Source of the DNA: Candidatus Caldarchaeum subterraneum
GTDB taxonomy: Archaea > Thermoproteota > Nitrososphaeria_A > Caldarchaeales > Caldarchaeaceae
Assembly: GCA_000270325.1 (NCBI GenBank)
Contig: BA000048.1
Span: forward strand, 895,471 to 927,470
DNA length: 32,000 nt
Direction: 5' to 3'
In this document: positions 2,592-29,786 of the stretch, piece by piece
Numbering within the stretch: position 1 is the first letter of the stretch
Layout: each line of letters opens with the position of its first letter
Position numbers and translations under genes: made by a program
The notes under the pieces: generated by a model
What the model saw: only the letters and a program-made list of their open reading frames with translations
The model's database searches: none
Told to the model about the DNA's origin: nothing

Positions 2592-3341
2592 TTGTTAGCG
2601 GCTCTGGCATTGATAGGGACCAGCCCAGCAGTCGTGACGGAGTTCGTCGACTACATAGAGAAAAGGGAGAAGATCACGACCCTTAGGATCGTTGCGACAC
2701 GGGCTGATCAGGTTGTTAGCGGTGCGTTGCTTGCTGCAGAAGCGGTTAGATACAGGTATCCATGGATAAAAGCTTCTGTAGACACGCTTCCCCTAAGCGA
2801 CGTAACAAACGAGGATGAGAACTATGTATTCATGGAGGAGCTGGTGAATGTAATCAAGTCCATAAAATCCTCAGACGCGGAGAGGATCTATCTTTGCTTA
2901 GCTGGGGGGAGGAAAGAGATGGCTGTGGCCGCTGTTTTGGTGGCGCAGATCATGGGGCTCAACGCTGTTTACCACGTGTTGTCGCATAACATTAGGAAGG
3001 CCAACGTGGAGCTTGAGAGGATAAGGGATAAGATAAAAGAGCTGGCCTCCTCAAAAGACCCGGGAGAATACTACGCCAGAAACGCAGAGCTCTTCGAGAA
3101 AGTGATGTATCCTTCTCCAGATACATACAACGTGATAAAGATCCCAATACTGCCTTATCCTCGGGAAACATTGGATACGCTGAGGAACATTATGTCAAAC
3201 GAGGCCCCACAGGAGCGGGCGCTTAGCCGTGAATTGTTAGATAAACTAGTGGAAGCGGGAATTGTCACACGTTGCTGCGGCAAGATTCTGGTGACAGAGG
3301 AAGGGCTTAGGTTTTATCGACATGTGCTAGAGCATGTATAA
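2592..3341 (+). CDS. CARF-domain protein with C-terminal winged-helix (Crn1/Csx14-like; possible cyclic-oligoadenylate sensor, ring nuclease or regulator)
   Basis: The ORF has a TTG start. The N-terminal motif LIGTSPAVVTE and the later LAGGRKEMAVAAVL match the GTSP...GGRK.M signature of the Crn1/NE0113-type CARF Rossmann fold. The C-terminal LSRELLDKLVEAGIVTRCCGKILVTEEGLRFY looks like a wHTH. The gene starts 111 nt downstream of the array. Confidence 0.8.
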   Translation: MLAALALIGTSPAVVTEFVDYIEKREKITTLRIVATRADQVVSGALLAAEAVRYRYPWIKASVDTLPLSDVTNEDENYVFMEELVNVIKSIKSSDAERIYLCLAGGRKEMAVAAVLVAQIMGLNAVYHVLSHNIRKANVELERIRDKIKELASSKDPGEYYARNAELFEKVMYPSPDTYNVIKIPILPYPRETLDTLRNIMSNEAPQERALSRELLDKLVEAGIVTRCCGKILVTEEGLRFYRHVLEHV

Positions 3342-4267
3342 CCAAGAGTATTAACTGCCAGAATCTCTAAAACCTCTTAACCATTGCAACCGGGCTTGTC
3401 AGGTTCTAGCCACACTATTCACAGCAAACAGGCAACATTATACACCACGACTCCGCATACATGTTAACCACCGGCTGGAGACGCCGAGCAGCTTCCACCC
3501 ATTTCATTAAAGAACCTTCACGACAAAGAAATTGCCCTAAATTTTTGGAGAGGATTCAGCTTCTTGCCATTTTTGAGGAGCTTGCGGAGTGCTGGAGAAA
3601 ACTCAGGGGCTCACTGATTTCACTGTTATCCAAGAGGACTCGCCTCTTTTCATTATTACTGCTTTCGCGGTCAACGTCTGTATGCTGATTCAAGGTCTCC
3701 TCAAACTCGCTTTTGGAAGGCCTTCTACCCTTTTCCTCTCGGTTCTCTTATTGTCTTTGACAAATATTTTTTATCCATTGGGGTGGTTTCCACGTGTTGG
3801 GTGTCGCGGGGAGCTATCTTCTGCGGCGTCTCTCGCTGGAGCACGACGTCGTCGGCTTCGAGAACCAACGTAGGGAAAGCTTCAAATATAATCGGCGTAA
3901 AAAAGGGGGAAGCCATGAATACGGGAGACTCTACAACGATCACGGCCACGCTCATGGAGGTAGGTGATGGAGAACACGGGTTAGTCTCCGTTGATGAAGC
4001 AAGAAGATTAGGCTGTTAAAGACCATCCACAACCACGATCTTTCCCAAATGAGGCATCTCATCTCCGAAGTCTAAACAGTCCGGGGTTCAAGATATACCT
4101 CTAAACTCTCAACACCCCAAACCCCCTCTCCATACCTCTCCACCTATGGTCCCACAAACCTCAAACCAACCCCCATAATGGAGAGAAGCTACACAAAGCT
4201 CGCCGAAGCCGCAGCAATCCAACCCATGGGAGGAAAAATATTCGCGACACATATTCGATGAACTGTG

Positions 4268-6391
4268 TTAAGATATGTAGAATGGGTCTTTTCTCGGAGA
4301 CGTTGTGTAGCCGTTGGATGCGCCGTGCTTGTTTTTAACCTTTTGCAGCAGAGTTGAGACCGTTTTCACCGCGAAGACTGCTCCTTGCTCGGTTGGTTTA
4401 TAAGACCCCTCCTCTATGTTTAGAAGACCCCTTCTCACCAGCTCTCTGTAGATCGGCGCGTCCTGCGGCTTCATTGTCTTCTCGGTTATTTCATGGGCAA
4501 TAGTGTGCCGCAAATATCTTAGGGTCTGGAGGTTTTTGACCATGTCTCTTCCCACAATACCATAAAATGGGCCAAAGAAGGTTCCCCTAGCCGCTCCGTC
4601 AGGCGAAAACTCTATGCTAAGCTTCTCAACTATCTTATAACATAGGATAACCACTGTCTCTAAACAGGTTGCAGCCTCTCTCCTGCTTGTGGAGCTCTTC
4701 GCCTTTTCCAGCCACTCCTCAGCCTCTTTAAGAGATGAACTGGCTTCATCGAGCAGTGACACCTGTCTCCGCTGTGTCGCTTCTACTGAGCGTCTACCAT
4801 GCTCCAGCCTCTCCCTAGCCTCTTTAACCATTTCCTTCAACGCGTCAGCCAGCTTCTCCTCCTCGACCTTGGTAATGTTTTCGAAGCTGGATAAGAGCGC
4901 GTAAACAGCATAGCCTAGGAGGCTGCATAGCTCCATCTTGGAAAGATGCACGTGTGTCTGAGAAGCTGTCCTGTCCACCAGCTCCCATCTCTCTTCTGGA
5001 CGTGTCCCGTGCAGTGCGAGCGTCAAATAATCTAATGGATGTACATCGTAGCCATCCCCAGCCCTAGTGGCCCTCACACCGAGAGCGTTTAGAACCTGGT
5101 TGAAGACGCTTTCACCCTCGCTGGTCAACAGCTCCCTAACCCTGATAGTTTCTGCGGAGGCCCATATCCTCTGGAGGTCTCTTTCACCTATAATACTTAG
5201 AACAGTTCTCGCGGTATGGAAGCTTAGAAGCTCCGCCAACGGGTTCTCAAGCCTTGCGGAGACCACACGCTTTTCAATGGCTTCGCTTATTCTCTCTAAA
5301 GCCCTCTTCCTAACCTCATCCGGAAAGTTTGGGAAATCATGTACAGGTAACAAGGAAAACAGTTTTCTCGACTCGGGTAGGAATGGATACTTGGCAAGAG
5401 TAGTTAGATACACGGATCCCGCGGATCGTGGTAGACCGGCTACAGGATAAGGCCCTACACTGGGCTCCGGGCTTTTCGCCAAAGCCAGTATAATGACAAG
5501 AGTAGATACAGGCAGCATGGTGGCGTACAGCAGGCTTGTCCATGATGAGCCGGCTTGGAAAAAGTCAGACTCGAAAAACAGGTTGAGTAAGCCAAGGGGT
5601 ATGAGGACCTCCCTAAAGCCTGCAAATATGAGAAGAAGGCTTATCAAGAGACCCCATATGAAGCCATGCACCCTGCCCACGTCAGCGCCTTTCCTAACAG
5701 CCTCTATCCAGTAGCGGGGGCTGAAGCCAACTATAGCTGCTAACAGCAGAAGCAACATAACCTTGTCCTGCTGCGTCAGCGGTAGTTTAAGAAGCGTCGT
5801 CAAGTCACTTAAATAATCTAGAACAGTGTAGAGTATCACAAGCCCTATCGAGCGAGCCGGTGAAAATCCCAGCTTCAAGCCAGCCGCGACATGTCTCCTC
5901 CCAGCCAACCATCCAGCCAGCCACGGGATAAGATAGGATAGAAAAGCTAGGAAGAGATAGTTGAAAAACTCTGTCCTACCAGCCGGCCTCCAAACCGCCG
6001 CCGAGACATAACCTTCATCAAGCCCACAGCCATCCAATAAACCGCTCCACTCCGCTGGATTGATGTCACCATCCATTCGGGTCTCTATCGCTTCAGGACA
6101 CTTATCACTCGGCGCCGAACAACCACAGATAAGAGCTATAGCCCCACTTTCTAGGCTGCCGCCTCCCCCGAATACTCTAGACCATTCAATGTCGTCGAAT
6201 AGGTTTAACGACGTGGCCGGTTCCCGAGTATAGGGCTCTATAGAGGCAAAGACCATGAGACATATCCATAGACATGTCGCCACAGTAGCCGCTGTCCTCG
6301 AGTCATTCCTGTTGTCGTGCAGGAGGTCCATGTTCGATTTCGGCCCGTGGCTCCTCTTTACACAGCCATTTGCATCTATGTCACTATGCAT
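4268..6391 (-). CDS. Polytopic membrane protein fused to a PriL N-terminal-domain-like region and a HEPN-like C-terminal domain
   Basis: This is a 707-aa ORF. The N-terminal 330 aa hold about six hydrophobic helices and a Cys-rich loop. The middle region is colinear with the neighbouring PriL (LAKYPFLPES...ERISEAIEKRVVSARLENP...RWELVDRT...VHLSKMELC). The tail contains LRYLRHTIAHE, which fits the Rx4H motif. The start is uncertain: M1 is at 6391 and M21 at 6331. Confidence 0.75.
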   Translation of the reverse strand: MHSDIDANGCVKRSHGPKSNMDLLHDNRNDSRTAATVATCLWICLMVFASIEPYTREPATSLNLFDDIEWSRVFGGGGSLESGAIALICGCSAPSDKCPEAIETRMDGDINPAEWSGLLDGCGLDEGYVSAAVWRPAGRTEFFNYLFLAFLSYLIPWLAGWLAGRRHVAAGLKLGFSPARSIGLVILYTVLDYLSDLTTLLKLPLTQQDKVMLLLLLAAIVGFSPRYWIEAVRKGADVGRVHGFIWGLLISLLLIFAGFREVLIPLGLLNLFFESDFFQAGSSWTSLLYATMLPVSTLVIILALAKSPEPSVGPYPVAGLPRSAGSVYLTTLAKYPFLPESRKLFSLLPVHDFPNFPDEVRKRALERISEAIEKRVVSARLENPLAELLSFHTARTVLSIIGERDLQRIWASAETIRVRELLTSEGESVFNQVLNALGVRATRAGDGYDVHPLDYLTLALHGTRPEERWELVDRTASQTHVHLSKMELCSLLGYAVYALLSSFENITKVEEEKLADALKEMVKEARERLEHGRRSVEATQRRQVSLLDEASSSLKEAEEWLEKAKSSTSRREAATCLETVVILCYKIVEKLSIEFSPDGAARGTFFGPFYGIVGRDMVKNLQTLRYLRHTIAHEITEKTMKPQDAPIYRELVRRGLLNIEEGSYKPTEQGAVFAVKTVSTLLQKVKNKHGASNGYTTSPRKDPFYIS

Positions 6392-6845
6392 ATATATCCC
6401 CAGCCATGTTACAGGCTTCTCTCGACAAGCCGTATCAATCCGGAGACCTCGGCGGAAATAAACACTTTGTCGAACATGTTCTAAAACGAGTTAGGTAAAG
6501 CGAAAAACTTCTAAGATCCCTGCACAGACACAACCCACTATACACATCTTTTCAAACACATTGCAGAACATTTGTTTAGGTGGCTGAAGGGACTCTCTAT
6601 ACCTATGCAGCCAGAGTCTTAACATCGACGTTTAGGCTCAGCAGTCAATCATCTGCATGTACTATAAAAAATCAGAAAGACAGGCCTCGGGGCGAGAAAA
6701 TGGTCCGCGGATCCAATGTTGTCACCTAACCAGTTCCATGCCACAGGTGATTCCTGCTGTAAACACTTATGAACCTGCAGAAACTGTCTTAGAAGAGTAT
6801 GGCAAAACATCATCATGATGAAATCTAAGACGTAGTAGCTGTGGT

Positions 6846-6897
6846 AAAAAACTTGATGCCGACGGTCGAAGCCGTGTAGTCGCCGAGCCGTCTCGGC
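6846..6897 (-). terminator. Possible terminator of the 149-aa gene (hairpin plus T6 run)
   Basis: The hairpin GCCGAG-ccgt-CTCGGC at 6882-6897 abuts the stop codon. A run of six T on the minus strand (A6 on + at 6846-6851) lies about 46-51 nt downstream of the stop. Archaeal termination typically uses oligo-T tracts. Confidence 0.3.
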
Positions 6898-7346
6898 TAA
6901 CCCATGTTCGTCTTCTCTAGAGCATTTAGGAACGCCGAGGAATCGCCGCTCTTAAGCCGGAGCCTTCTCCTAGAGCCGTCAACCAGATCCAGCTGCAGCT
7001 CTGTTACCAGCTCATAGCTTAGAACAGACTGCCCAATTATGAGACCGGGCTCTAGATGCTCTGAGACGACGGTGACACTTTTTATCATGTTTCTGCCGAA
7101 TAGCTCCTTGCCAAGCGTTATCGAGCCGTCTGAATAGACTTTTACCGGCTTACGGCTCCAGCCATCTCGTATCCTGAAAAGCATGTAGAGCATCGCTGCG
7201 CCTATTGCTAGACCTGGTATAGATGAGGGGAGTGATACAAGCCCGAAAAAGAGGAAAAGTACTCCGAAAAAGCCGAGAAGCCATTCAATCACAAGCTGTG
7301 ACAGCGTCCTATAGCAACGCCCGGTGAAGAGCACGGTGGCGCTCAT
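6897..7346 (-). CDS. Small membrane protein (two N-terminal TM helices plus a soluble beta-rich domain)
   Basis: This is a 149-aa ORF. The hydrophobic segments are LVIEWLLGFFGVLFLFFGLV and IPGLAIGAAMLYMLF. A TATA-like box sits at the expected distance upstream. Confidence 0.6.
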   Translation of the reverse strand: MSATVLFTGRCYRTLSQLVIEWLLGFFGVLFLFFGLVSLPSSIPGLAIGAAMLYMLFRIRDGWSRKPVKVYSDGSITLGKELFGRNMIKSVTVVSEHLEPGLIIGQSVLSYELVTELQLDLVDGSRRRLRLKSGDSSAFLNALEKTNMG

Positions 7347-7371
7347 ACTGTTTTAAGGGGTTACAGGCTTT

Positions 7372-7379
7372 GATAATAA
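7372..7379 (-). promoter_or_regulatory. TATA-like box for the 149-aa gene
   Basis: TTATTATC on the minus strand lies 26-33 nt upstream of the ATG at 7346. This spacing is typical of leaderless archaeal transcripts. Confidence 0.4.
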
Positions 7380-7714
7380 GGAATTGTGAACTTGTTCCAG
7401 ATTTGTTGAAGAACCTTGAACATATTAGCTATCAATCGCCTCCCAAACCTAAGCAGTGTACATAGACAAAGGCTCCATGTGGACGCATCACTTGAAATTA
7501 ACAACAATACGGAAGATGATGCGAAAACAATCCAAAGCCCCGACCATTGAAGAAATAGGCAACGGCTTGCTGTGCTTTGATGATTCGGCCGGTTATCTTC
7601 TCTGGATGCTCTGATGTGGCTAGATAGCTGGCTAGAAGTCTTAGGTACTGTGCCGTGATAGAGGATGGCTTACAGGGCTTATATACATGAATAATGTCGC
7701 GTCAACGATCTCTT

Positions 7715-9250
7715 TTAAAAACATACCGCGGCACTTGATGCATCTCTGTCCATCATCCCGTACTGGAGCGGGTTTTTGATGTTCTTGGGACATAATTTCC
7801 CTTTCTCGATGCAGAGGTTGTGGGCCTGCATCGTTGGGCAGCTCGGCGGCCTATATATCGTCCCGCTGCCACGCTTACCCGCTATATGCTCTACTTGGTA
7901 CCTGGCTATCTTCTCGTCGAAGTCTGCTCTGGCTCTGAAGATGTCAACAACCTGCTCCACCGTGTATCCCTTGTTTGTTAGGAACGCTGCTAGAGTGAAG
8001 CACTCGAAGTGGCTGGCGTCGCTTATTCTATTGGCTATCGCGTGTATACATGGTGGCCACTCATTTTTATTGGATGGGGTGGTTATGGTTTTTGCCTTGG
8101 CTGCGAGGATTTGATTTATCTCGTTTAGCTGGTTCAATATTTTTTCCGGAGGTTTAAGGTTTTTTGGTAATGCGCTGAAGTCGCTGAAGATGTTGTATGC
8201 CGCCTCTCTCGCCAATCTGCAGACCTCGGACCTAGTTAAGTGGACATACCCGCGTGACAGAGTCCTGTTAACCAGCTTCCACCTGGTGTTAGAAGTGAGT
8301 CTCTCTGCGAGTCTCAGATAATCGGTGAAGTGTATCATATAGTGGTCTCCCACGTTTTTCACGGTGATGTTTAGACTCTTCAACACATGCTCGAAAACCT
8401 GTAGAATCTCTATGTTGAGCTGTTTCTCGACTCTAACAGCCTCTGCTAGAGCCCATCTTTTACGTAGCCAGTCATTTGATAGATGGTGGACAATCATCTT
8501 AGCCACGGGATATGAAGCGAATTCTATGAATGGTTTCTCGAGTTTAGCCGTAACCTCGTACCGCTCTATAGCCTCTATAACTCTCTCCCCCGCTCTAGAC
8601 AGCACTTCTTCCTCGACCTCGGTAATGTCCAGCGCCTTCGCAAATTGTTTAGCCTCTTGGAGAAAAGGATAGGTAGCCAACAGTCTAAGGTTTATTTTCG
8701 GAGTCATAGTCTCCGCTGTAGACTGTTTCTCCGCTATCAGAGAATCTTGGGATGATGCCGGCGCTGTATCCGATTTCCTGGCCTCGGTAACAGTTTCTGT
8801 CGTCTCATTCTCTTCAACGGCTCTTGCTTCAAAGTGTTCCTCCAAGGCTTTGTAAAGCCTTCTAAGACCCTCGTCGGACAACTCCTCGACCTGTGTCAGT
8901 ATATGGTTGATGACGCTGTCCTCGAACTCCTTTTCCTCTACATGCCCCGGGTCTGACCACTTGTATTGTGGGTAGCTCCGCTTCAGCTCCTCGAGCATCT
9001 CTTCATAGGTGAGACGTGGGTCGTATATGGCCGCCCAGTCGACCTCCAAAGGGTCAGCGTCTGGATTGTTCTTAACGAAGGTGTTGATAAGCGACTGGAC
9101 CACGATATAGTTCGGGCTCTTTCCATGGAGGCTGCTCATCTCCCGGCAAATCTTCGCAACAAGCTCCTTCAAGGCATCACTCTCCAGCTCTCCAACAGTA
9201 TCGGTACATCGCTGAGGCCGACCGTCTCCATCACACGCTCCCTGAACCAC
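7715..9250 (-). CDS. priL: DNA primase large subunit PriL with Fe-S C-terminal domain and an unusual ~150-190-aa N-terminal extension
   Basis: The C-terminal signature is WPPCIHAI...FLTNKGYTVEQVVDIF...ARYQVEHIAGKRG...YRPPSCPTMQAHNLCIEKGKLCPKNIKNPLQY, with four Cys for the 4Fe-4S cluster. The N-terminal helical domain starts at LATYPFLQEAK. The start is uncertain: 9250 overlaps the upstream gene by 82 nt, ATG 9139 avoids the overlap, and an internal MTPKINL start would give a canonical ~330-aa PriL. Confidence 0.85.
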   Translation of the reverse strand: MVQGACDGDGRPQRCTDTVGELESDALKELVAKICREMSSLHGKSPNYIVVQSLINTFVKNNPDADPLEVDWAAIYDPRLTYEEMLEELKRSYPQYKWSDPGHVEEKEFEDSVINHILTQVEELSDEGLRRLYKALEEHFEARAVEENETTETVTEARKSDTAPASSQDSLIAEKQSTAETMTPKINLRLLATYPFLQEAKQFAKALDITEVEEEVLSRAGERVIEAIERYEVTAKLEKPFIEFASYPVAKMIVHHLSNDWLRKRWALAEAVRVEKQLNIEILQVFEHVLKSLNITVKNVGDHYMIHFTDYLRLAERLTSNTRWKLVNRTLSRGYVHLTRSEVCRLAREAAYNIFSDFSALPKNLKPPEKILNQLNEINQILAAKAKTITTPSNKNEWPPCIHAIANRISDASHFECFTLAAFLTNKGYTVEQVVDIFRARADFDEKIARYQVEHIAGKRGSGTIYRPPSCPTMQAHNLCIEKGKLCPKNIKNPLQYGMMDRDASSAAVCF

Positions 9251-9819
9251 CTAGGCAGAAACCTGACCAGCCGCCTGTAGCGGTCGTCACACATCAATAC
9301 GATGGCCCTGTCCTCTGGTCCTCTGACAGCTCTCCCCGCCGCCTGTATAGCTGCGTTAAGCGCGGGAAGAATGGTTCCATGCATCACCGCCTTCTCCTCG
9401 CTTCCAAGTATTCTCGCAAGCTCCTGTGTTGCCAGCCTGGTCCTTGAGGTGGGAGGGGTGAATGGAATACCCACCAACACCACCAGGTTGGCACTGAGAT
9501 CAAGCCCCTCGGAGAGCCTCGAGTTGAAAACACTGACCAAGACCCCGCCTTTGGCCAGAAACTTTCTGGAGACGTCTTCTACCTCCTCCTGATTCATCCC
9601 AGGATGCTCAACTATCAAGCCGGGCTCCGCCTCCACAGTTCCAACCACTTCTTGGAGTATCTCATAGCTGGGGAGGAAAAACAGCGTCCTCCCTCCAGAA
9701 GCTATCTGCCTAGCTACTTGAAGCAGCCAAGTGACGTCGCTAAGCATCTTGTCATCTCGTTTATCATATTTAGTGCTTATCCCTGCGACGATACAGGCCC
9801 TAAAGACTATTTTCTTCAA
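9169..9819 (-). CDS. xpd: XPD/Rad3-family helicase, C-terminal half (helicase domain 2)
   Basis: The sequence carries helicase motifs V/VI of the XPD/DinG family: LFFLPSYEILQEV...VFNSRLSEGLDL...VVLVGIPF...AIQAAGRAVRGPEDRAIVLMCDDRY. It starts only at a TTG inside the overlap with the N-terminal half. Confidence 0.8.
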   Translation of the reverse strand: MKKIVFRACIVAGISTKYDKRDDKMLSDVTWLLQVARQIASGGRTLFFLPSYEILQEVVGTVEAEPGLIVEHPGMNQEEVEDVSRKFLAKGGVLVSVFNSRLSEGLDLSANLVVLVGIPFTPPTSRTRLATQELARILGSEEKAVMHGTILPALNAAIQAAGRAVRGPEDRAIVLMCDDRYRRLVRFLPRWFRERVMETVGLSDVPILLESWRVMP

Positions 9820-10969
9820 AAGGCCATCCAGCCCTCAGTACATGGAGCTTTCTACCTACCAGTGATTCTAGGAGAGCCGGGTCATAGGTCGCTGATATAG
9901 TGACTGTTGCAGCCCAGCCTCCATAGAATGCTTCAACACTATCAAGGCCCCCGATAGCCTCTAGGTATCTTTTTGAGCCGCGTCTTGACAACAGTAGTTT
10001 GTCGCCTTTTATCGAGAGCTTGAAGTCAGCTAGGGCAAGTATATATGGTGAAGGAGACTTCCCCTCTTTTAGCTGAGTCTCTTGAACCTCTCTCCCAGCT
10101 TCTATCAACTCGCTCGCCGTGGGTAAGAGGTCGTCGACCAGCGCGTCGTCGCCGAGCCTGACGCCACAATACCATGCCAAGGCCTCTTCTATCCTCTTAG
10201 CCAAGTCGTTGAACCCGTATCTCCTAGCCTCATCCACAGCCTTCTCCAGCGTCGAGAGGCTTACCTCATCCAAGGTAAGTGAAATAGATTGATTGAGAAT
10301 ATGATGCCCCTCATCCACGACCAGTATAACGTCACGTCGCCCACAGGCCCATCGGCTCAGCAACAGCTCCATGAACCTGAGCTGCCTATGAGTCGCCACT
10401 ACAGCATCTCTTCCTAAAATGTTCCAGGCCAGCAGCTCGTAGGGACATGAACTTGAAGCAATACCCAGCTCCTTCGCCTCGTGTATGGAATAGATGTTGA
10501 CGTCGGAGAAACTGGCAGTCGCTGGATAGTGCTCGCATTTTCCCGCGATCCTAAGGGCGTAGCAGGCATTGTTGAACCTCTTCTGGTCAAGCCCTGAACA
10601 CAGCGGATTTATGCATAGCATCCGTCTGCCGAAAATCGGCGAGGCATCGATCTCTCGAGCAACCTTAGAAACCTGGGAAGCTGTCCGAACCAGCCAGAGA
10701 ACCCTGAGACCATTCTCCTCCGCGAAGCTCTTCACGGCGCACCAGACGGCGGCGGTTTTACCAGCACCGGTCGGAGCCTCTACCACGACATCTCTACACC
10801 CCGTCGACAACCGTTCGTAGACAATGTTCGCCATATCTCCTTGAAACCTCCGTAGAGAAGAGTATGGAAAATGGCGGCGAATGTTATCCACAATCTCCGC
10901 ACCAGGCTCCAGCTCATGTACTATCATTTCCATCAACTCTGCATCTATGCTCCTTGATCCTGTCCGCAT
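9800..10969 (-). CDS. xpd: XPD/Rad3-family helicase, N-terminal half (Walker A, Fe-S cluster domain, DEGH box, arch)
   Basis: Motifs present are FPYSSLRRFQ, VEAPTGAGKT, a Cys cluster (LCINPLC...NAC...GKCEHY...SSCPYE) and VVDEGHHI. The ORF ends ...GWPFEENSL, directly abutting the frame of the C-terminal half. A likely true start is M13/M15 (10933 or 10927), which removes the overlap with the upstream ATPase. Confidence 0.8.
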   Translation of the reverse strand: MRTGSRSIDAELMEMIVHELEPGAEIVDNIRRHFPYSSLRRFQGDMANIVYERLSTGCRDVVVEAPTGAGKTAAVWCAVKSFAEENGLRVLWLVRTASQVSKVAREIDASPIFGRRMLCINPLCSGLDQKRFNNACYALRIAGKCEHYPATASFSDVNIYSIHEAKELGIASSSCPYELLAWNILGRDAVVATHRQLRFMELLLSRWACGRRDVILVVDEGHHILNQSISLTLDEVSLSTLEKAVDEARRYGFNDLAKRIEEALAWYCGVRLGDDALVDDLLPTASELIEAGREVQETQLKEGKSPSPYILALADFKLSIKGDKLLLSRRGSKRYLEAIGGLDSVEAFYGGWAATVTISATYDPALLESLVGRKLHVLRAGWPFEENSL

Positions 10970-12398
10970 CCAGCAGAGGAACGGTGAAGCCGCAGCTTAT
11001 GCATCTCAGGCTGCTACATGACCCGCCAGACGACACCTCCTCAACCAGGTGGGGCCCTATCCTGAAAAAGGCACGACTCTCCTCCCCACCGGTTCCGCCG
11101 GAATCGGCTTGGGACCGGATAGTCTCTATCCCTGTATGCTTTTCTTTGTCGACACTCTCTTCGACATCCTCTGGGGCTGTAGAATCGATGGACACGGTCT
11201 CCCGCCGCGTTTCTTCAGCGATGTCTCCAATTTCCTCCGGCTTGCTTCGCCCCGCCGGTGTATAGCGTCTTGGAGGTTTTCTGAAGTGGAATTCACCGTT
11301 GTAGATTATAAGCTTGTTCATGCTCTCGACTTTCTTTACCTTGACGAGATGCTCATACAGCCTGGGCGGTAGTGTGTTTGTGCCAAAGGATATGACAGCG
11401 CCGACGTCGCTTTCTAGGTGTAGGGGCAGCTGGAACGGGTCTGGAGCTACTATTATACACCCCACTCCGAAAGCCCTGCACTCGTTGACCATTCTCTCGC
11501 CAATTGATACGTCATTGTTTTTACCTCTCCTAACAATGTTCTGAGCCTCCTCTATGACCACTATTGTGTGGAAGCTTCTCGCTCCACCGTGTACAGACTC
11601 TCTATAAACATTCCATAGAGCCAGCGTTGCATACATGGTTTTGAGCTCGGTGAGCGGGATGTCTGAGAGGTCTATGACAACGTCGCCAGATGGGATGAAG
11701 CCGGTCGGCTTATGTAGTGTTAGAACCCATAGCCTCCTAAGCAGCGCTGCCTGTATCTCCGCCTCAGCCTTGGATGCGGGGACCTTGTCCTTTATCAGTT
11801 TGAGCAATGCCTCGGCGTTGTCCAGCCCCTTCTCATAGAACTGTTGGAGAACATTGAGCATCACATATGCCTGCGGCTCAGATAGGTTGAAAGCCTCTCT
11901 AAGAGCCTCTGCGAGAACAAGTGGAGTCAACCTGTCTCCGAAGACCTTGAAGACATCGAATCCACGTATCCTCGGAACCCCATTCAAATCATACTCCCCT
12001 TTCCAATCGATGACGACGACCCTGACACCTCTCCTCCTCAAGAAGTCCAGGGCTTTTCTGACGAGGCTTGTCTTCCCCGACCCCGTTCTACCCACCACCA
12101 GGACATGTTTGTTAAAGTCATCTAGGCTAAGCAGATTCAGGAACCGGCGACTCCTTCTCATGACAAGAAATGGCAGCGGCGCTAAAGCCGCTGTCATCAT
12201 TAGAAGAGGTATGTGGAAAAGGTATCCTTCGGTGCCTAGTCTCGGTAGAAAGGGTTGAGACGCTGCCATAAGGGTTATCAGCCCGGCAACCGCCAAGGCA
12301 GCCCTGTAGAAACTCAACTTAGTTAACCTCCCTGCACTATGTCGAGGGGTCGGCGGCGGCGGTGGGCGCCTGTGAGGATTAGATGTATCCCAATGCAT
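10914..12398 (-). CDS. Membrane-anchored FtsK/HerA/VirD4(VirB4)-superfamily P-loop ATPase
   Basis: The N-terminus has two hydrophobic helices (AALAVAGLITLMAAS and LFHIPLLMMTAALAPLPFLV). Walker A is VVGRTGSGKTS, followed by VVVIDWKGEY, and Walker B is TIVVIEEAQNI. The tail is acidic and disordered, ending in a Cys cluster (CSSLRCISC...HRC). Confidence 0.8.
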   Translation of the reverse strand: MHWDTSNPHRRPPPPPTPRHSAGRLTKLSFYRAALAVAGLITLMAASQPFLPRLGTEGYLFHIPLLMMTAALAPLPFLVMRRSRRFLNLLSLDDFNKHVLVVGRTGSGKTSLVRKALDFLRRRGVRVVVIDWKGEYDLNGVPRIRGFDVFKVFGDRLTPLVLAEALREAFNLSEPQAYVMLNVLQQFYEKGLDNAEALLKLIKDKVPASKAEAEIQAALLRRLWVLTLHKPTGFIPSGDVVIDLSDIPLTELKTMYATLALWNVYRESVHGGARSFHTIVVIEEAQNIVRRGKNNDVSIGERMVNECRAFGVGCIIVAPDPFQLPLHLESDVGAVISFGTNTLPPRLYEHLVKVKKVESMNKLIIYNGEFHFRKPPRRYTPAGRSKPEEIGDIAEETRRETVSIDSTAPEDVEESVDKEKHTGIETIRSQADSGGTGGEESRAFFRIGPHLVEEVSSGGSCSSLRCISCGFTVPLLDADRIKEHRCRVDGNDST

Positions 12399-12642
12399 AG
12401 GGTATGACTAGATGTATCATTACCAGGCCTACTATCCCAGCGGATACCATTCGGTATCCTAGATACTCCTGCTTCAGCGCCACGAGCATCAATCCTAAAC
12501 CTATCATGCCTATGCTAATCACATGGATAACCGGGGTGGCTATTTGGAATATTTGGAGAATTATCTCCCTCACCAGGGCGGCAATCTGATTCCCAACGCC
12601 CCCCACCTGTCCGATAGCCAGTGCGAGAATATCGGGAAACAT
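12379..12642 (-). CDS. Small two-helix membrane protein (VirB2/TrbC/CedA1-like topology, speculative)
   Basis: This 87-aa ORF has two long hydrophobic helices separated by a short polar loop (IATPVIHVISIGMIGLGLMLVAL-KQEYLGYR-MVSAGIVGLVMIHLVIPYAL). It overlaps the start of the ATPase gene by 20 nt. Confidence 0.6.
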   Translation of the reverse strand: MFPDILALAIGQVGGVGNQIAALVREIILQIFQIATPVIHVISIGMIGLGLMLVALKQEYLGYRMVSAGIVGLVMIHLVIPYALGYI

Positions 12643-12862
12643 TCCAACCCTCAGAACTCTCTTTCCCTGTTTAACATTATGTAAACAAGTTACGTCTGCT
12701 GTTTCTACGATGTATCTTATTCAGGAAACCTTTAAGTATCCTAGTGTGAACTCTTTGAAACGAGCTAATGCTCGCTATGATATATCTCCTCTAGCCCAGG
12801 CCGTGGACAACCTCTGCCTAATTTTTTCTAACGGCTCTATCCACCTTTGTTCAGCCTGTCCC

Positions 12863-13639
12863 CTAGACCAGGTCAGCTATCTTCAGCTGCTCAGTGATCT
12901 TTTTCACATCCTTAAGCCAGTAAATCCTCACAGGGTCATTATAGTTCTCCAGCTCCTTGTTCGTGTATACATATATCAACGGCGCCATCAACTGGTCCGC
13001 TATCTCGCTGAAAGCTATACCAGCCGGCCTAGTGCCCGATGTACAGTCAATTATAGGGACATACTCTCTACACAGCTCATACACCTTAGGCTCCATGATG
13101 TTCACCATCGTCTCTATGTCGTTCATCTGCTCCACCGATACTAGTTTCCAGTCAATGATAGCATATCTTCTATACCTCTGTATGTCAAAGGCCCAATCAC
13201 TATAAGCCTCCTTGGTAGTGGCGATTACAATCCTCTCCAACCTAAACCCCTGCGCCTCCAACATGTTAACAGCTGTAACCGGCTCCGGCTCATCTATATC
13301 CAGCCTAAGCTTCCTACCCAGCAGCCCGACATAGACATACTTTACATCTGCTCCCACCACATAGCAGAGCGGGGTTTTGCTCTTAAGCGAAGCTACGCCG
13401 CCACCATAGTTAATGTAGCACAAGTCCCTCAACCTATAAAGTCTATTCGTTAAAGTAGAGCCGAGGCTCCGTTTTCCACCGACGGTGTCCAATAAATCGC
13501 TATGCCTAGCGACACCTCCGCGCCGGGCTATGCTGAGCAGGAGCAGCTTATCCGGCTTATAAAGAGAAGCCAGTCGAGAATAATTCTGTGCATGGACCTT
13601 AAGCTCATCTTCCACACACGCCATAAGCCCCTCCACCAT
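12863..13639 (-). CDS. N-terminal wHTH plus C-terminal CARF-like Rossmann domain protein (Csa3-like with reversed domain order)
   Basis: The N-terminus LLLLSIARRGGVARHSDLLDTVGG...LTNRLYRLRDLCYI looks like a winged helix. The C-terminal half has RIVIATTKE (beta1) and VPIIDCTSGTRPAGIAFSEIA, which resembles the D.T.G.R/K motif of Csa3/DUF1887-type CARF domains. Confidence 0.55.
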   Translation of the reverse strand: MVEGLMACVEDELKVHAQNYSRLASLYKPDKLLLLSIARRGGVARHSDLLDTVGGKRSLGSTLTNRLYRLRDLCYINYGGGVASLKSKTPLCYVVGADVKYVYVGLLGRKLRLDIDEPEPVTAVNMLEAQGFRLERIVIATTKEAYSDWAFDIQRYRRYAIIDWKLVSVEQMNDIETMVNIMEPKVYELCREYVPIIDCTSGTRPAGIAFSEIADQLMAPLIYVYTNKELENYNDPVRIYWLKDVKKITEQLKIADLV

Positions 13640-13699
13640 TTATCACCCAATAATAGAAATCCCGTAATAAGATTTTTGTACAACATTCCTACACAGCCC

Positions 13700-14340
13700 A
13701 GCGAGACACCGTCTCACCCACTCTCAAATCGAAAGAATCTTTCAGACAAACGTTCGCAGGAGATTTCAACGCTAACAATTAAAACGTGGCAACATCGTTT
13801 TCCAACCCAAGAACACATAAAATGAAGCAGCTGGAAGCCCCGAAGAAAAAGCTAAACAGCAAACGGCAAACCCGATTAAAAATCCACAATCACCGCCTAA
13901 TTTCAGTCCACGGGATAAAAAGAATCAACACGGACGGGATGAGGCGGAGTAAGGTTCTCCAAGGCCACTAAAAAGCCCGACGCCACCTCCCCCCAAGAAC
14001 AGGGAAGAGAAACTACCATAGCTCGCGGCAGGCTACAAAAAGTAGCGAACGCCAATCATATGGATTATATGTGCAGCCCAATACAAAAGGAAACACCTAC
14101 GAAAATATTCCCCCAAATCTAGCCCAATGTATATAAACGCGGCGAGGCCGGACAAAAACAACATAAACACAAGTGGAAAACCGGAGGCAACGGTCCCCAG
14201 AAACAACCTAGCCAAAGACCTACAATCCCCCAGATCAATAGCGGAAATACAAGTAAGTCAAAAACAGCAAGACAATAAACAAGCCCATTCACTGAACCTG
14301 TTCAAATCATCCTTGAGAAACGAAGGATGGATGTTTCTCA
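13700..14340 (-). pseudogene. Decayed polytopic membrane-protein gene (multiple frameshifts)
   Basis: The + strand here is strongly A/C-rich. Minus-strand frames yield consecutive hydrophobic pieces in different frames: MRNIHPSFLKDDLNRFSEWA, LVYCLAVFDLLVFPLLIWGIVGLWLG, LFLGTVASGFPLVFMLFLSGLAAFIYIGL, GFLIGFAVCCLAFSSGLPAASFYVFLGW. No intact ORF exceeds 60 aa. Confidence 0.35.
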
Positions 14341-16016: not shown

Positions 16017-18293
16017 TCAGTTACGAGTTATAGCTGATAAGCTCGGCGAGGACTCGACCTCGCTCACTATAGTTGCTCCCCGCCCCAGCTCGAACCTGAG
16101 CACCCTGGCCTCGGCGCCCTCGAAAACCTCCTCATCATGGGTTATCACTATCACCTGGGGCATTTTTCTGCCGAGTCTCGTCAACACCTCCCTCAGCCTC
16201 CTCCTCTTCTCAGCATCGAGGTGCACAGTCGGCTCGTCCAAGACAAAGAACCCGAGTCTCTGGGCCCCGAGAGCGTCACCTATCGCGAGCCTAAGCGCCA
16301 GAGCCAGAACGACCTTCTCTCCTCCGGAGAGCCTCTCCCAGCTCACCTCCCTACCCTGGTAAAAGCACCTGAAGACAACCCTGCTGCCCCTGCCCGTTCG
16401 CTCCTCCTCGATCCTGATGTCGCTGACCGGTGACTCAAAGGTATCTAGGTATTCCCCTGCCCTCTCCGAGACCCTCTCGTAGACCCAGCTCCTTAGGCTC
16501 ATGAGGACTGGCCCCTCCCTGTGGTACACCAGTTCCCTCATCTTCCTCATCAGATCCCGGAACTCCCTGGCCTTCCTCAACACTTCCCTAACCCTCTCCA
16601 GTTCCCCGATCTCCTTCTCGGCCTTCTGCATATCCTCCCTGAGCTTCTCCAGCTCCTTCTCCTTGCTCCCGATCTCCCTGCTCAACTTGTCCTTCCTGAG
16701 CTTGAGCCGTTCCAGCTGTACCACATCCCCGGCACTGTATCCGTCATCCCTGAGCCTCTTGATCCCCGTCCTGATCCGGCTCAGCAGCTCCGCCACATCG
16801 GCCGGCAAAACCTCGGCGACCCCCTGGAGCTCCGCTACGTCGAGCTCGATCGGGACCTTGACCTTCTCCAGCTTTGCGGCTCTTTCCCGGAGACCTTCAA
16901 GCCGCGCCTTGAGAGCCGCTACGCCGGGCTCCCCTCCGACCTCCCTCAGGAGCTGCTCCGCCGCGAGCACCTTGTTCCTGAGCCTCTGGACGTCCTGGCC
17001 GTTGATGGTGCCCAGCTCGTAGATTTCCTTGTTTGCCTCCCTCCTCCTCCTATTCGTCTCCTCGATCTCGGCCTTTATTGCATCCCTCTTGGTCACCAGC
17101 TCGGCGGCCCGTGATGCGAGGGCAGAGCCATGCGCCTCTGAGACCAGCTCCACCACGCCCTTGACATCCAGCTCGACCCTATTGGCCAACCCCAATGTTT
17201 CTGCTCCGAGAGCAACGGCCTTCCCCAGCTCAACTGCGTCATCCCTCAGCCTCTCCGCCCTCGTCCTGGCTTCATTGCGGAGCTCTTCTAGGGTCCTCGC
17301 TCCCGCTCCTGTAGGGAGCCTCGCGAGCTCTCCCCCTATTTCCCTGAGCTGCCTTTGGAGGGCCCTCTCCTTCTCGTCCAGCCTAGAGATCTCGACCCGT
17401 AGCTCGTCCACTCTGGTTATTCTCTTCTCGATCTCTTCTCTGAGAACCAGAACTTTCGTCGCCCGCTCGATCCTCCCAACCTCCTCCTCTAGGTCTGCCA
17501 GCTCCCGGCGGACGAGACCTTTCAGGGCCTCGAGCGACGACCTGACCTCGCCGAACAACCGGTGAAGGCCCTCGAGCTTCTCGATACCTTCGCTAAGCTC
17601 TTGGTGCTCGTTCCTCAGCCTCTCGAGCTCCTTTTCCAGCTCGACCTCCTTCTCCTTACCCTCCGTGAGGAGTCTCCTGAGTTTCTCCAGCTCCTGCTCC
17701 ACAAGCAACAGCTCATCGACGGACCTGCGGACCATTAGCCTGACCCTCTCCTCGAAGCACTCGAGGACCTCTTTCATCCTCGCATAGGCCTGTTCGAAGG
17801 CGGAGAGGCCCAGCAAATCGTCGAAGAGCTCCTTCAGCTCCTTAGGATCGGCCCTTAGTATGGCGTCGACCTCTCCTTGCTGGATCACGACGCTCGACCT
17901 CATCCTCTCGTAGTTCATCCCCAGAAGCCCGGAGACGATGTCCGAGACCCTCCGGTCAACCCCTCTCTCTGAGGTGGCGAGGAGCTTTCCGTCTTCTCTG
18001 ATCGACGCCTCCTTCAAATTGCCCTTGTTGTCGAACCTCCTCATCACCTTGTACAACTTCCTGTTCAGCTCGAAATCCAGCTCGACCCTCCCTTCCTGCG
18101 CTCCGCCCCCGTCGTGGACTATGTTGGCGTTCTGGCCCCTTGTGTGCCGGCCGTAGAGCGCGTAGACGATGGCGTCCACGACCGAGCTCTTTCCTGCCCC
18201 GTTCCTCCCTATGAATACCGTGAGGCCGTCTCCTAACGATATCTCCGTGTCCCTGTGGGAGAGGAAGTTGAAGAGCCTTACCCTCCTGATCAC
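16017..18293 (-). CDS. rad50: Rad50 SMC-like ATPase (no CxxC zinc hook detectable)
   Basis: All canonical ATPase motifs are present: Walker A FIGRNGAGKSS, Q-loop VVIQQGEVD, a long E/K/R/L coiled coil, signature RLSGGEKV, Walker B FFVLDEPTVHLD and H-loop VIVITHDEE. The start overlaps the mre11 stop by 4 nt. Confidence 0.93.
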   Translation of the reverse strand: MIRRVRLFNFLSHRDTEISLGDGLTVFIGRNGAGKSSVVDAIVYALYGRHTRGQNANIVHDGGGAQEGRVELDFELNRKLYKVMRRFDNKGNLKEASIREDGKLLATSERGVDRRVSDIVSGLLGMNYERMRSSVVIQQGEVDAILRADPKELKELFDDLLGLSAFEQAYARMKEVLECFEERVRLMVRRSVDELLLVEQELEKLRRLLTEGKEKEVELEKELERLRNEHQELSEGIEKLEGLHRLFGEVRSSLEALKGLVRRELADLEEEVGRIERATKVLVLREEIEKRITRVDELRVEISRLDEKERALQRQLREIGGELARLPTGAGARTLEELRNEARTRAERLRDDAVELGKAVALGAETLGLANRVELDVKGVVELVSEAHGSALASRAAELVTKRDAIKAEIEETNRRRREANKEIYELGTINGQDVQRLRNKVLAAEQLLREVGGEPGVAALKARLEGLRERAAKLEKVKVPIELDVAELQGVAEVLPADVAELLSRIRTGIKRLRDDGYSAGDVVQLERLKLRKDKLSREIGSKEKELEKLREDMQKAEKEIGELERVREVLRKAREFRDLMRKMRELVYHREGPVLMSLRSWVYERVSERAGEYLDTFESPVSDIRIEEERTGRGSRVVFRCFYQGREVSWERLSGGEKVVLALALRLAIGDALGAQRLGFFVLDEPTVHLDAEKRRRLREVLTRLGRKMPQVIVITHDEEVFEGAEARVLRFELGRGATIVSEVESSPSLSAITRN

Positions 18294-19423
18294 GTCCCCT
18301 CACCCCAGCCTATCCCATACCTCTTCCGCCAGAAGTCATAGAGGGCCTGCTCCGCCTCGTCCTCGCTCCCGGAAGAGAGCAGTTTGAGCAGATCCCCGAG
18401 GGCGAAATCTATCAAGTCCTTATCCTTTATCTGCTCGAGTGCGAGCTCCCTCAGCCGCTCCTCAACGCTCAGCTGCCGCTCGTGACGGAGCTCGACGGTC
18501 TTCCCTTTATCCGGCTTGACCGACAATCTACTGATTATGTACCTGTCCTCTAGCTTCCGCCTCACAATCATCGGGTCCACGTCTCCCTCGACCTCCATCC
18601 AGAGCACCGGCCTCTTCCTATGCCCGGCCTCCGCTAGCCTCCTGACCTCTTCCTCGAGGTCCTGAACCTTGACCGATACCCTCACCTTGGGCCTGACTGA
18701 CTCCAGCCTGACCCATTGGGCCTCCGGCTCGTCTCCCGAGAGGTCCACCAGTAAGACTCCGCAATCATCGGGGTCGTCGACGTCAACCCAATGGCTCGGT
18801 CCAGGGTAGGCCAGTAGTCCCCTCCCCATCCTGACCTCATAGCGCTTGTGGATGTGCCCCATGGCGTAGTAGTCGAATCCGTGCGGGATTTCGCTGATGG
18901 AGAGCTCCGAGCCTGGTCCGAAGGCCTCCCTCATGCCCTGGTGAAGCACGAGGACCTTCTTCCCGCTTAAACCCCTGACCCTCCGGCCTATCTCCTCGAG
19001 CCTCTCGCATAGCACTCCGGCCTCTACCAGCTTGTGCTTGTGCAGCCCTATCACCGTCAACCCCTTGACCTCGTGCGCCTCACCGTTACCGACGTACTCT
19101 GCCAGTCCTGCGAGTTTAGCCACGTAGGGATGAGGCGTCGAGGGTATGCTGCTGATGTCGTGCTCTCCGAGGGTGAAGAGCATGTGTATGCCTCTGTCAT
19201 TGAGCCTCTTGGCCCCCTCCATCAGTACCCTCATGGCGTCTCCGTAGGGCCTCGGCTCGTCCAGTATGTCACCTGAGTGGATCACTATGTCGACGTCCTC
19301 CCTGACGAAGATTTCTATCGCCTCGAGGAAGGACGCGTGTACGTCCTCGCCGACCTCTCTCAGCTCCTCGTCCCTGCCTATGAAGGCACCCAGGTGCGTG
19401 TCCGATATGTGGCCTATCATCAT
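18290..19423 (-). CDS. mre11: Mre11 nuclease (calcineurin-like phosphoesterase)
   Basis: Phosphoesterase motifs are GHISDTHLG (I), HSGDILDE (II), TLGEHD (III, with E where N is usual), VLVLHQG (IV) and GHIHKRY (V). It has 4-nt overlaps with herA and rad50. Confidence 0.93.
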   Translation of the reverse strand: MMIGHISDTHLGAFIGRDEELREVGEDVHASFLEAIEIFVREDVDIVIHSGDILDEPRPYGDAMRVLMEGAKRLNDRGIHMLFTLGEHDISSIPSTPHPYVAKLAGLAEYVGNGEAHEVKGLTVIGLHKHKLVEAGVLCERLEEIGRRVRGLSGKKVLVLHQGMREAFGPGSELSISEIPHGFDYYAMGHIHKRYEVRMGRGLLAYPGPSHWVDVDDPDDCGVLLVDLSGDEPEAQWVRLESVRPKVRVSVKVQDLEEEVRRLAEAGHRKRPVLWMEVEGDVDPMIVRRKLEDRYIISRLSVKPDKGKTVELRHERQLSVEERLRELALEQIKDKDLIDFALGDLLKLLSSGSEDEAEQALYDFWRKRYGIGWGEGT

Positions 19424-29092: not shown

Positions 29093-29115
29093 AATCGGCC
29101 CACCTACGGCAAGAG
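29070..29115. repeat. Tandem 27-nt duplication (19/19 identical core) across the membrane-gene start
   Basis: GGCCCACCTACGGCAAGAG occurs at 29070-29088 and again at 29097-29115. On the minus strand the period of 27 nt (9 codons) is in frame and encodes LAVGGP twice. Confidence 0.9.
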
Positions 29116-29240
29116 ACCACTACGTCTACACCCACGAGACACGGAGGAATATAGGGCTGGCAGAGGTTCAGCGCCACCAGTTCGCAACTCTAGCCGACCT
29201 ATTAGCCGAGACAGCCACACAGACCTGCTGACAAGTTAGC

Positions 29241-29433: not shown

Positions 29434-29786
29434 GGCTTTGGAAGAGCCCCTCTGCAGTTGCACTTTTCCGCAGTAGATTACCCCATGTCTTCCGGGCAGG
29501 TGAGCCTACGTCCCATTAGGAATAGTCTTGAGGAATAGCATTTGTAGACCGTCTCCTCAACACCTCTGCTATCAAGCATCCCGTATTGTGGTATGAGAAC
29601 GGCTGTGATATGGAGAAGCATTCTAACTCTGCTGATGATATGACGAATCACCGTGACTAAGCGCATGAGCTAACTCTGTTGTCAGTATGTCTCTGAATTG
29701 TAGCGCGACAGACATTCCAAGCAATCTCTCACGTAGAAATAGTAAACGTTTTACTACAACCTTTTGCATCTATTATGTGAAGAGCC

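Follow-up and report, generated by a model that had tools for sequence, protein, structure and literature searches.

The genome of Candidatus Caldarchaeum subterraneum contains, within the 32,000-nt stretch analyzed here (the window), a minus-strand gene cluster whose core encodes a small membrane protein of 87 amino acids (aa), an ATPase with two N-terminal transmembrane (TM) helices, an XPD-family helicase, and a paralog of the primase large subunit PriL (here called PriL2). In the order Caldarchaeales (former Aigarchaeota), these core genes constitute a single module that is conserved and functionally linked. By analogy with known systems, we judge it an even call that the module is a chromosomal DNA-transfer apparatus derived from a type IV secretion system (T4SS), resembling Ced and Ted and carrying its own DNA-processing enzymes.

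Conservation of the four-gene linkage

A PriL profile was run over one genome per GTDB species, followed by tblastn with all module proteins. With all sources counted, the four families occurred together in 9/9 loci that had enough flanking sequence, namely, the window's own locus (W) and L001, L003, L006, L010, L011, L012, L014, and L015 (L numbers denote related loci or contigs). The relatives come from different Caldarchaeales lineages, and the linkage holds at 33 to 53% protein identity. L001 and L003 were reached through ATPase homologs, and L006 and L010 through PriL homologs. Within the GTDB scan itself, all four loci with an N-terminally extended PriL and enough flank (L011, L012, L014, and L015) carried XPD, the ATPase, and an 87-aa homolog, whereas none of the 74 canonical PriL loci (from Caldarchaeales, other Nitrososphaeria, Bathyarchaeia, and others) had any module neighbor. 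Fisher's test, which compared these 4/4 loci with the 45 of the 74 canonical loci having at least 5 kb on both sides, gave p = 5e-6.

Gene order differed among loci, with at least three arrangements of the module. The order was small membrane protein, ATPase, intact XPD, inserted gene, and PriL in L001; PriL, small protein, ATPase, two genes, and XPD in L003; and small protein, further along ATPase, zinc-finger protein, XPD, and PriL in L006 and L010. The flanking genes were ordinary chromosomal genes and were partly syntenic between species. Linkage that survives rearrangement is a classical sign of functional coupling, and because the linkage was kept through at least three gene orders, the core genes are taken to be functionally coupled. 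The initial annotation had raised the possibility of a single module and had asked whether its gene order is conserved in relatives; the same four families do recur together across the order, with their arrangement shuffled.

The opposite view, that housekeeping priL and xpd genes lie by accident beside unrelated membrane genes, is hardly credible. Adjoining genes need not be related, and spacers of 368 nt (between PriL2 and a 149-aa membrane protein gene) and 505 nt (between the latter and a 707-aa protein gene) set these two genes off from the core. Chance, however, is contradicted by linkage at every module locus and at no canonical locus, by rearranged order at such sequence divergence, and by the PriL being a paralog.

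Two observations were made at the margins of this distribution. In Candidatus Pelearchaeum maunauluense, only a C-terminal fragment of a cluster-type PriL was present (L027:10179-10766; 47% identity). Neither XPD nor the ATPase nor the small protein lay within 10 kb of it, and the same assembly had a canonical PriL (L050); the module may have decayed at this locus. In several relatives, families F5 and F6 (L006:11429-12631; L011:11596-12042 and 12947-13795), encoded downstream of PriL2, have odd terminal peptides. Unrelated proteins encoded in this region have a common N-terminal ...GHRGKGG.DSSPE...DDSGA... stretch, and the F5 C terminus is an invariant ...RLAGIPAQQQG. These shared peptides may have come about because translation runs across a repeat or a conserved non-coding element.

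Domain content of the core proteins

From its sequence relationships, the window PriL is a dedicated paralog and not the housekeeping ortholog. In a neighbor-joining tree, the cluster-linked PriLs formed one clade, separate from the canonical PriLs of the same order and nested among the PriLs of Nitrososphaeria without being an outlier. At least four relatives have both PriL types, on the same contig (L011/L047, L012/L035, and L014/L024) or within one assembly (L013/L085). A fifth pair is probably L017/L056, in which L017 ends at a contig edge, with its N terminus outside. The C. subterraneum genome paper lists two complete PriLs, one truncated PriL, and a single PriS. Because the window holds just one complete PriL, along with one protein that has the PriL N-terminal domain only, a second complete PriL must lie elsewhere in the genome. 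The initial annotation had left room for a sole, housekeeping copy; the tree, the paired relatives, and the genome paper all speak for a distinct paralog. The separate possibility that PriL2 is an ordinary housekeeping PriL of Thaumarchaeota was ruled out by the genome scan and the tree.

PriL2 matched PF04104 at 86.6 bits (cutoff, 22.4), and its best score on the NCBIfam PriL equivalog models was 208 bits, under the cutoff of 439. The protein consists of an all-helical N-terminal extension (approximately residues 21 to 145), a low-complexity linker, and a complete PriL with its N-terminal domain and its C-terminal 4Fe-4S domain, in which the cluster ligands C401, C471, C480, and C487 were invariant in the PriL alignment. 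In PriL proteins, the N-terminal domain binds PriS and the iron-sulfur (FeS) domain supports initiation. The extension, about 120 aa long with the motif NPDADPxxxDW..VWD..L.Y.EL...F...YPMYRW, was kept in all PriL2 members except that of L001 and in more than 100 metagenomic relatives (454 to 488 aa). AlphaFold, given a 31-sequence alignment, predicted six helices for it at a predicted local distance difference test (pLDDT) score of 80, and a Foldseek search of this model against the PDB returned only noise (E > 0.6; TM-score < 0.4). The alignment points to a start for PriL2 near position 9190, inside the longest open reading frame (ORF; 7715-9250, minus strand). As a matter of annotation, the deposited form (330 aa) begins at an internal Met and so misses the domain and the linker. 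The idea that the extension is a fused neighboring gene, the 265-aa protein of L001, was discarded: comparison by eye showed no similarity, and the L001 protein is a member of family F21.

All eight minus-strand ORFs of the initial annotation were found where it had placed them (Table 1), two of them being halves of one XPD gene. The overlapping junctions it described hold for the longest ORFs; some become smaller with better start sites. The N-terminal part of XPD has helicase domain 1 (HD1) with Walker A and DEGH motifs, a four-Cys FeS domain, and an Arch domain. It scored 31 bits on Pfam DEAD_2, 47 on rad3 (TIGR00604), and 88 on the PADLOC typeIV_DinG model; the C-terminal part scored 85 bits on Pfam Helicase_C_2. 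Taken together, the halves scored 111 and 88 bits on the PADLOC model for type IV-A-associated DinG (PDLC01439), versus 78 and 47 bits on rad3. Alignment with intact orthologs showed that Walker A, DEGH/Q, and the four cysteines are kept. XPD translocates 5' to 3' on single-stranded DNA (ssDNA).

In relatives, XPD is one protein of 520 to 583 aa that aligned by tblastn without gaps across the junction seen in the window. That junction reads ...AAT AGT CTT TAG GGC CTG..., which in the 0 frame gives N S L stop; a +1 skip after CUU gives R A C I V A G, the same as in the orthologs. Because a one-base skip restores the ortholog sequence, the two ORFs are one gene, and the window XPD is broken by a 1-nt frameshift. 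Its source may be a sequencing error, a real mutation, or +1 recoding; the two independent Logan contigs, L002 and L092, end before this site. The locus tags, C0935 to C0940 for six genes, suggest that the depositors took XPD as one gene. An explanation of the split as a short bulge-helix-bulge intron was rejected, since excision would remove only 1 or 4 nt.

The site itself, CUU UAG G, is a Leu codon followed by a stop, at which a slip of +1 onto UUU brings back the ortholog sequence. The +1 recoding site of bacterial prfB has the same form. This form could be a coincidence, and the frameshift could be a sequencing error or a real mutation. At L010:8140-8365 and L003:6160-6305, the conserved XPD N terminus, including Walker A, is encoded without an in-frame ATG, GTG, or TTG. 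A preceding ATG or GTG is offset by one base upstream relative to the XPD frame, so that entry would need a +1 shift, and the upstream frame passes through a conserved GGCCGGGGAGGGU element and then terminates. Translation there may involve a non-canonical start, a +1 shift, or an unusual start codon together with a Shine-Dalgarno-like element.

The ATPase has TM helices at residues 28 to 46 and 61 to 79, with Walker A at about residue 100, and two N-terminal TM helices were kept in all orthologs. The deposited form (467 aa; start, 12317) does not overlap the gene for the 87-aa protein. The protein has the DUF87/HerA central domain of HerA/FtsK-superfamily P-loop ATPases, with Walker A and B motifs and an arginine-finger region: it matched Pfam DUF87 (42.5 bits; cutoff, 23.2) and HerA_C (23.5 bits; cutoff, 22), matched TrwB_AAD_bind at the P-loop only, and found HerA proteins among PDB sequences. 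The initial annotation had likened it to CedB-type or coupling-protein-type translocases. Among curated NCBIfam families, its best match was CedD (NF053655), the VirD4-like DNA-import ATPase of the Ced system, at 87 bits (E = 1e-24; cutoff, 600), ahead of CedB (41 bits) and HerA (26 bits). CedD was also the best match of the orthologs from all module loci (79 to 83 bits). We therefore describe the protein as CedD-like but not CedD; with a TM hairpin directly before the P-loop domain, its topology is VirD4-like. At the end of its acidic C-terminal tail is a zinc-ribbon-like motif rich in Cys, which in other lineages is a separate zinc-ribbon/C2H2 gene (family F4). In L006 and L010, there is a second, divergently transcribed ATPase of 722 to 786 aa with four or five TM helices, whose best T4SS-type match was CedB (43 to 56 bits).

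A non-coding insert of about 60 to 85 nt interrupts each of the ATPase and XPD genes at one fixed codon position in several relatives; the window has no such inserts. ATPase inserts lie between DWK and GEY (L006:6358-6442; L012:4333-4415; L011, approximately 3890-3935), and XPD inserts lie between K and T of the Walker A GKT (L011/L012:8435-8495; L006, approximately 8348-8430; L004, approximately 4632-4705). The insert sequences differ. Those that were fully read (ATPase of L006 and L012; XPD of L004, L006, and L011/L012) form a canonical hBHBh' structure with a 4-bp central helix and two 3-nt bulges; for the L011 ATPase, the 3' half of the motif was seen. When each bulge is cut behind its second nucleotide, the reading frame is exactly restored, and the spliced L011 XPD aligned over its full length with intact orthologs. 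Gene callers list these genes as split ORFs. By their sequence, the inserts look like pre-mRNA introns for the tRNA splicing endonuclease. To our knowledge, cbf5 is the classic and nearly the sole archaeal pre-mRNA intron of this type.

The 87-aa protein has two hydrophobic helices, a conserved LRQEFxGxR loop, and a highly conserved mature region of about 75 aa, and homologs occurred within the module in 11 loci. The orthologs of L010, L015, and L016 have signal-peptide-like N-terminal segments; other orthologs have none. A single-sequence AlphaFold2 model predicted helices at residues 2 to 61 and 66 to 85 (pLDDT, 83). A word-indexed homolog search returned only the protein itself, Foldseek found no matches to the single-sequence model, and a profile of the family run against PDB sequences, including solved pilins (8DFU, 8DFT, and 8EXH), gave chance matches only (NDH subunits). 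The initial annotation had compared the protein with VirB2, TrbC, CedA1, and TedC. Its size and topology, its T4SS-type ATPase neighbor, and the Sec signal peptide of some orthologs agree with such pilins, and no sequence or Foldseek match to pilins was obtained. The Ced and Ted pilins are themselves without mutual sequence similarity (PMC9905601). The protein is thus a candidate VirB2/CedA1/TedC-type pilin.

Lineage-specific genes and genomic surroundings

Table 1. Features of the cluster and their positions in the window
Feature	Position	Strand	Content or basis
258-aa putative regulator	12863..13639	-	Winged helix-turn-helix (wHTH)-like N terminus, CARF-like Rossmann C terminus
87-aa small membrane protein, CSUB_C0940	12379..12642	-	Two hydrophobic helices
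HerA/FtsK-superfamily ATPase	10914..12398	-	Two N-terminal TM helices
XPD/Rad3-family helicase, N-terminal part	9800..10969	-	HD1, FeS, Arch
XPD frameshift site	9800..9819	-	Ortholog alignment
XPD helicase, C-terminal part (HD2)	9169..9819	-	Helicase_C_2
PriL paralog (PriL2)	7715..9250	-	PF04104 plus N-terminal extension (nt 8816-9190)
149-aa membrane protein	6897..7346	-	Hydrophobic N-terminal segment, soluble C-terminal domain
707-aa fusion protein, CSUB_C0935	4268..6391	-	About five TM helices, PriL N-terminal-domain-like region, helical C terminus

The initial annotation had included the 149-aa and 707-aa proteins in the module; both are lineage-specific additions, confined to the window and its closest relative. 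The 149-aa protein had no family match in Pfam, NCBIfam, or PADLOC, and its sole homolog (46% identity) is in L001, where it lies across the module, with the wHTH homolog beside it, on the opposite side. The 707-aa protein has about five TM helices (residues ~30 to 305) followed by a region resembling the PriL N-terminal domain (residues 320 to 545; nt 4757-5434) without the C-terminal FeS domain. Residues 331 to 545 matched PriL models at E = 8e-19; the best PriL match was the neighboring PriL2 (39% identity), and the others were ordinary PriL N-terminal domains. One full-length homolog was found among 1.84 billion representatives (P0138; 37% identity), in the same metagenome as L001. The protein had been described as a membrane-PriL-HEPN fusion. 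The first two parts of that description hold; the helical C-terminal region (nt 4268-4756) has an R[HN]TxAH motif (RHTIAH here and RNTVAH in P0138) that is compatible in sequence with HEPN, and this region matched no HEPN or other profile in Pfam, NCBIfam, or PADLOC. By its sequence, the 707-aa protein seems to have arisen when the PriL2 N-terminal domain was duplicated locally and joined to a membrane domain and a helical C terminus.

CARF-type genes had been noted at both ends of the cluster. The one at 2592-3341 is a strong CARF/Csx14 match (PADLOC, E = 1e-100) and lies beside a CRISPR array with 15 repeats (1498-2480). The 258-aa wHTH-CARF-like protein matched PADLOC CARF models weakly (E = 2e-5 to 7e-3; its L001 ortholog, 53% identical, reached 1e-8) and had no Pfam or NCBIfam match. 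L001 has a CARF-PIN gene and the wHTH-CARF-like gene near the module; the 258-aa regulator was missing from all module loci other than W and L001, and no CRISPR array was found near the module in any of 15 related loci. The control by cyclic oligoadenylate that had been suggested is thus not supported as a general property and would be at most a feature of this sublineage. A precedent for CARF control of DNA-transfer genes is the CARF-type regulator Csa3a, which activates ced/ups promoters (PMC7515695).

The same genes bear on a reading of the cluster as an antivirus or antiplasmid defense or CRISPR-accessory module, in which the membrane ATPase and the DinG/XPD-like helicase would act on invading DNA, possibly under CARF control. 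We regard this as distinctly unlikely. The CRISPR array and the Csx14/CARF gene do lie 1 to 2 kb from the cluster in the window, CARF-PIN and wHTH-CARF-like genes adjoin the module in L001, XPD scores better on the type IV-A DinG model than on rad3, and the ATPase weakly matches the HerA and mad8 defense models. The CRISPR array, however, recurs near the module in none of the 15 related loci, and the CARF genes are limited to the W/L001 lineage; no nuclease or effector is conserved; and the module, whose PriL2 tree follows the lineages, appears to be single copy and inherited vertically. Moreover, we know of no precedent for a complete, FeS-containing PriL in defense systems.

It is very unlikely, in our estimate, that the module descends, as a remnant or by domestication, from a conjugative plasmid or virus that had integrated and carried its own replication and transfer genes. 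VirD4/VirB4-like ATPases and VirB2-like proteins are indeed encoded by archaeal integrative-conjugative elements (PMC5797428), mobile elements are often the source of additional replication-gene copies (PMC3914693), and the module shows variable gene order and lineage-specific insertions. Yet neither an integrase nor a tRNA gene nor att-like direct repeats were found beside the module in the window, its guanine-plus-cytosine (GC) content equals that of the surrounding chromosome, PriL2 is nested among Nitrososphaeria PriLs, and the flanks are ordinary and partly syntenic.

A rad50-mre11-herA-nurA operon (16017-21779) lies 2.4 kb from the module in the window; no rad50 operon was found near the module in relatives. 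The operon is a sharp compositional island, with about 60% GC versus about 49% in the adjoining 15 kb on each side. rRNA and tRNA genes were dismissed as an explanation of the 60%-GC block at 16 to 21 kb, where searches with Rfam and ARAGORN gave no match; the block is this operon. Farther along, a third HerA/FtsK-type ATPase (28598-32000) runs off the right end, with its Walker A (GGVGTGKS) at the very edge. Next on the same strand come two four-TM proteins, of 148 and 164 aa, and between them a 205-aa TFB paralog that has just the cyclin-fold core. This group may be another membrane ATPase system; its likeness to the module ATPases is at the motif level only. At 25505-27859, a 784-aa Hef-type helicase (NCBIfam Hef, 555 bits over the helicase part) has a Cys/His-rich, SWIM-like N-terminal segment and is without the XPF nuclease domain, in agreement with the C. 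subterraneum genome paper, in which helicase and nuclease are described as encoded separately.

Proposed function and comparison with known transfer systems

The initial annotation had proposed a membrane-associated module for DNA translocation and processing. The conserved core linkage and the CedD-like ATPase are consistent with that proposal; transport itself, whether import or export, would follow by analogy, and import is the direction we favor from the likeness to CedD, which is essential for DNA import in Sulfolobales (PMC11823120, PMC11868833). In the mechanism that we propose, the small protein would form a pilus, a pseudopilus, or part of a membrane conduit, and the membrane-anchored, presumably hexameric HerA/FtsK-type ATPase (CedD/VirD4-like) would drive ssDNA through the membrane. 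As a 5'-to-3' FeS helicase and translocase, XPD would pull in DNA arriving 5' end first or would strip off the complementary strand. The extra N-terminal domain of PriL2 would be an adaptor that brings the single cellular PriS to the entry site, and the incoming strand would be primed repeatedly to give a duplex for recombination. A dedicated primase adaptor would make sense here because DNA that arrives 5' end first needs repeated priming, as in lagging-strand synthesis. In W and L001, the additions would be the wHTH-CARF-like regulator, the 149-aa membrane protein, and a membrane-bound PriL N-terminal domain that could bind PriS and tether primase.

A more specific version holds that this is an undescribed class of transfer machine, in which a T4SS-like motor is physically coupled to a dedicated XPD and to a specialized PriL that docks primase at the pore, one lineage adding a membrane-anchored PriL N-terminal domain. 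We consider this version possible but somewhat doubtful.

Several points weigh against a transfer apparatus. The match to CedD covers profile positions 217 to 460 of 527, that is, the ATPase core only, and the window's true HerA reaches 81 bits on the same model, although it scores far higher on HerA models than on CedD. In CedD, an N-terminal TM anchor is followed by a VirB4-NTD-like (N-terminal domain) region (PMC11868833); this region is missing from the module ATPase, which has no room for ~130 aa before Walker A. No CedB/VirB4-like ATPase is present in the window. No polytopic, VirB6/CedA-like channel protein was found conserved across module loci, and no remote-homology search against CedA was made; channel-like candidates are limited to the TM domains of the large L006 and L010 ATPases and that of the 707-aa protein, which is lineage specific. 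It is by topology alone that the small protein is assigned as a pilin, and the N-terminal domain of PriL2 has no recognizable fold relative that would hint at a partner. With XPD frameshifted, the module may be partly inactive in this genome, where this XPD may be either a paralog or the only copy. The function as a whole is read from linkage and domain content and is to that extent putative.

Some of these points would fit a membrane-tethered machine for repair or replication restart on the cell's own chromosome, without intercellular transfer, in which the motor would clear DNA and XPD with PriS-PriL2 would restart synthesis. XPD and PriL are repair and replication proteins, HerA/FtsK ATPases act on intracellular DNA too, the rad50 operon is close by in the window, and no VirB6-like channel is conserved. 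We nevertheless consider such a machine unlikely: the rad50 adjacency recurs in no relative, and it is hard to accommodate in such a machine either the second multi-TM, CedB-like ATPase of L006 and L010 or a conserved hairpin protein that is secreted or membrane bound and in some lineages has a signal peptide.

Among known systems, the module compares most directly with Ced of Sulfolobales and Desulfurococcales, which consists of CedA, CedA1/A2, CedB, and CedD (PMC11823120, PMC11868833). Both are chromosomal and have a membrane HerA/FtsK ATPase, for which CedD is the best match; the two-helix small protein of the window lineage, like CedA1, has no signal peptide, and the second multi-TM ATPase of some relatives best matches CedB. 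The differences are the low score of the module ATPase and its missing VirB4-NTD-like domain, the absence of a conserved CedA/VirB6-like protein, and a small protein without detectable sequence or Foldseek similarity to CedA1. In addition, ced genes are scattered and unlinked to XPD or a PriL paralog, whereas the module genes are linked. Ted of Thermoproteales (TedA, TedB, TedC, and TedD; PMC9905601) is like the module in being one locus with a CedD-like ATPase (TedD) inside it and in having a pilin with a Sec signal peptide, as in the orthologs of L010, L015, and L016; the presence or absence of a signal peptide among the 87-aa orthologs parallels TedC versus CedA1. Ted loci colocalize with herA/rad50, which hints at a coupling of transfer to processing (PMC9905601), but the corresponding adjacency of the window is not kept in Caldarchaeales. 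Ted also differs in having a true VirB4 (TedB) and a VirB6-like TedA, and no XPD or PriL has been reported in it. Both Ced and Ted are domesticated T4SSs, whose substrate is probably ssDNA and for which neither a relaxase nor a helicase nor a primase is known (PMC9905601). By analogy, the module may be a variant of such systems with new components.

The module, which is chromosomal, differs from bacterial conjugative T4SSs in having no relaxase. The logic of those systems is the same: a two-TM, hexameric coupling ATPase (VirD4/TrwB), a 5'-to-3' helicase on the transferred strand, and a dedicated primase (Sog, TraC). Their proteins are unrelated, with a superfamily 1B (SF1B) relaxase-helicase (TraI/TrwC) versus a superfamily 2 (SF2) FeS helicase and DnaG-type or PrimPol primases versus archaeo-eukaryotic PriL. 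In comparison with other primase subunits (canonical PriS-PriL and the accessory PriX of Sulfolobus), PriL2 has a complete PriL fold, with a PriS-binding N-terminal domain and a C-terminal 4Fe-4S domain, and presumably uses the single PriS; it stands apart as a full-length PriL paralog with an extra helical N-terminal domain and strict linkage to XPD and a membrane ATPase. With type IV-A CasDinG/Csf4, the module shares an XPD/DinG-family SF2 helicase, PDLC01439 being the highest-scoring model for both XPD halves, but there are no type IV cas genes, the helicase has XPD-like FeS and Arch domains, and the CRISPR adjacency is not conserved. Searches of the full-text literature yielded no account of Ced/Ted-like systems in Caldarchaeales or of a PriL paralog in linkage with XPD and a CedD-like ATPase. 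Nor was a description found in the literature of a PriL paralog of this kind or of a membrane-anchored protein with a PriL N-terminal domain; the C. subterraneum genome paper only counts its PriL genes.

How transferred ssDNA is unwound, primed, and handed over in Ced and Ted is an open question, for which the module offers a testable set of candidates, since a membrane motor, XPD, and a PriL paralog are kept together across an entire order. The organisms are uncultured, but the module proteins are of a size that suits heterologous expression. PriL, which is commonly regarded as a replication gene with one copy, has here a specialized paralog with a new conserved domain, to which one lineage adds a membrane-anchored derivative, and this bears on primase evolution and on censuses of replication genes in Thermoproteota. 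If the proposed function is true, PriL2 would be the first replicative-primase paralog devoted to transported DNA and an independently evolved archaeal counterpart of the conjugative primases.

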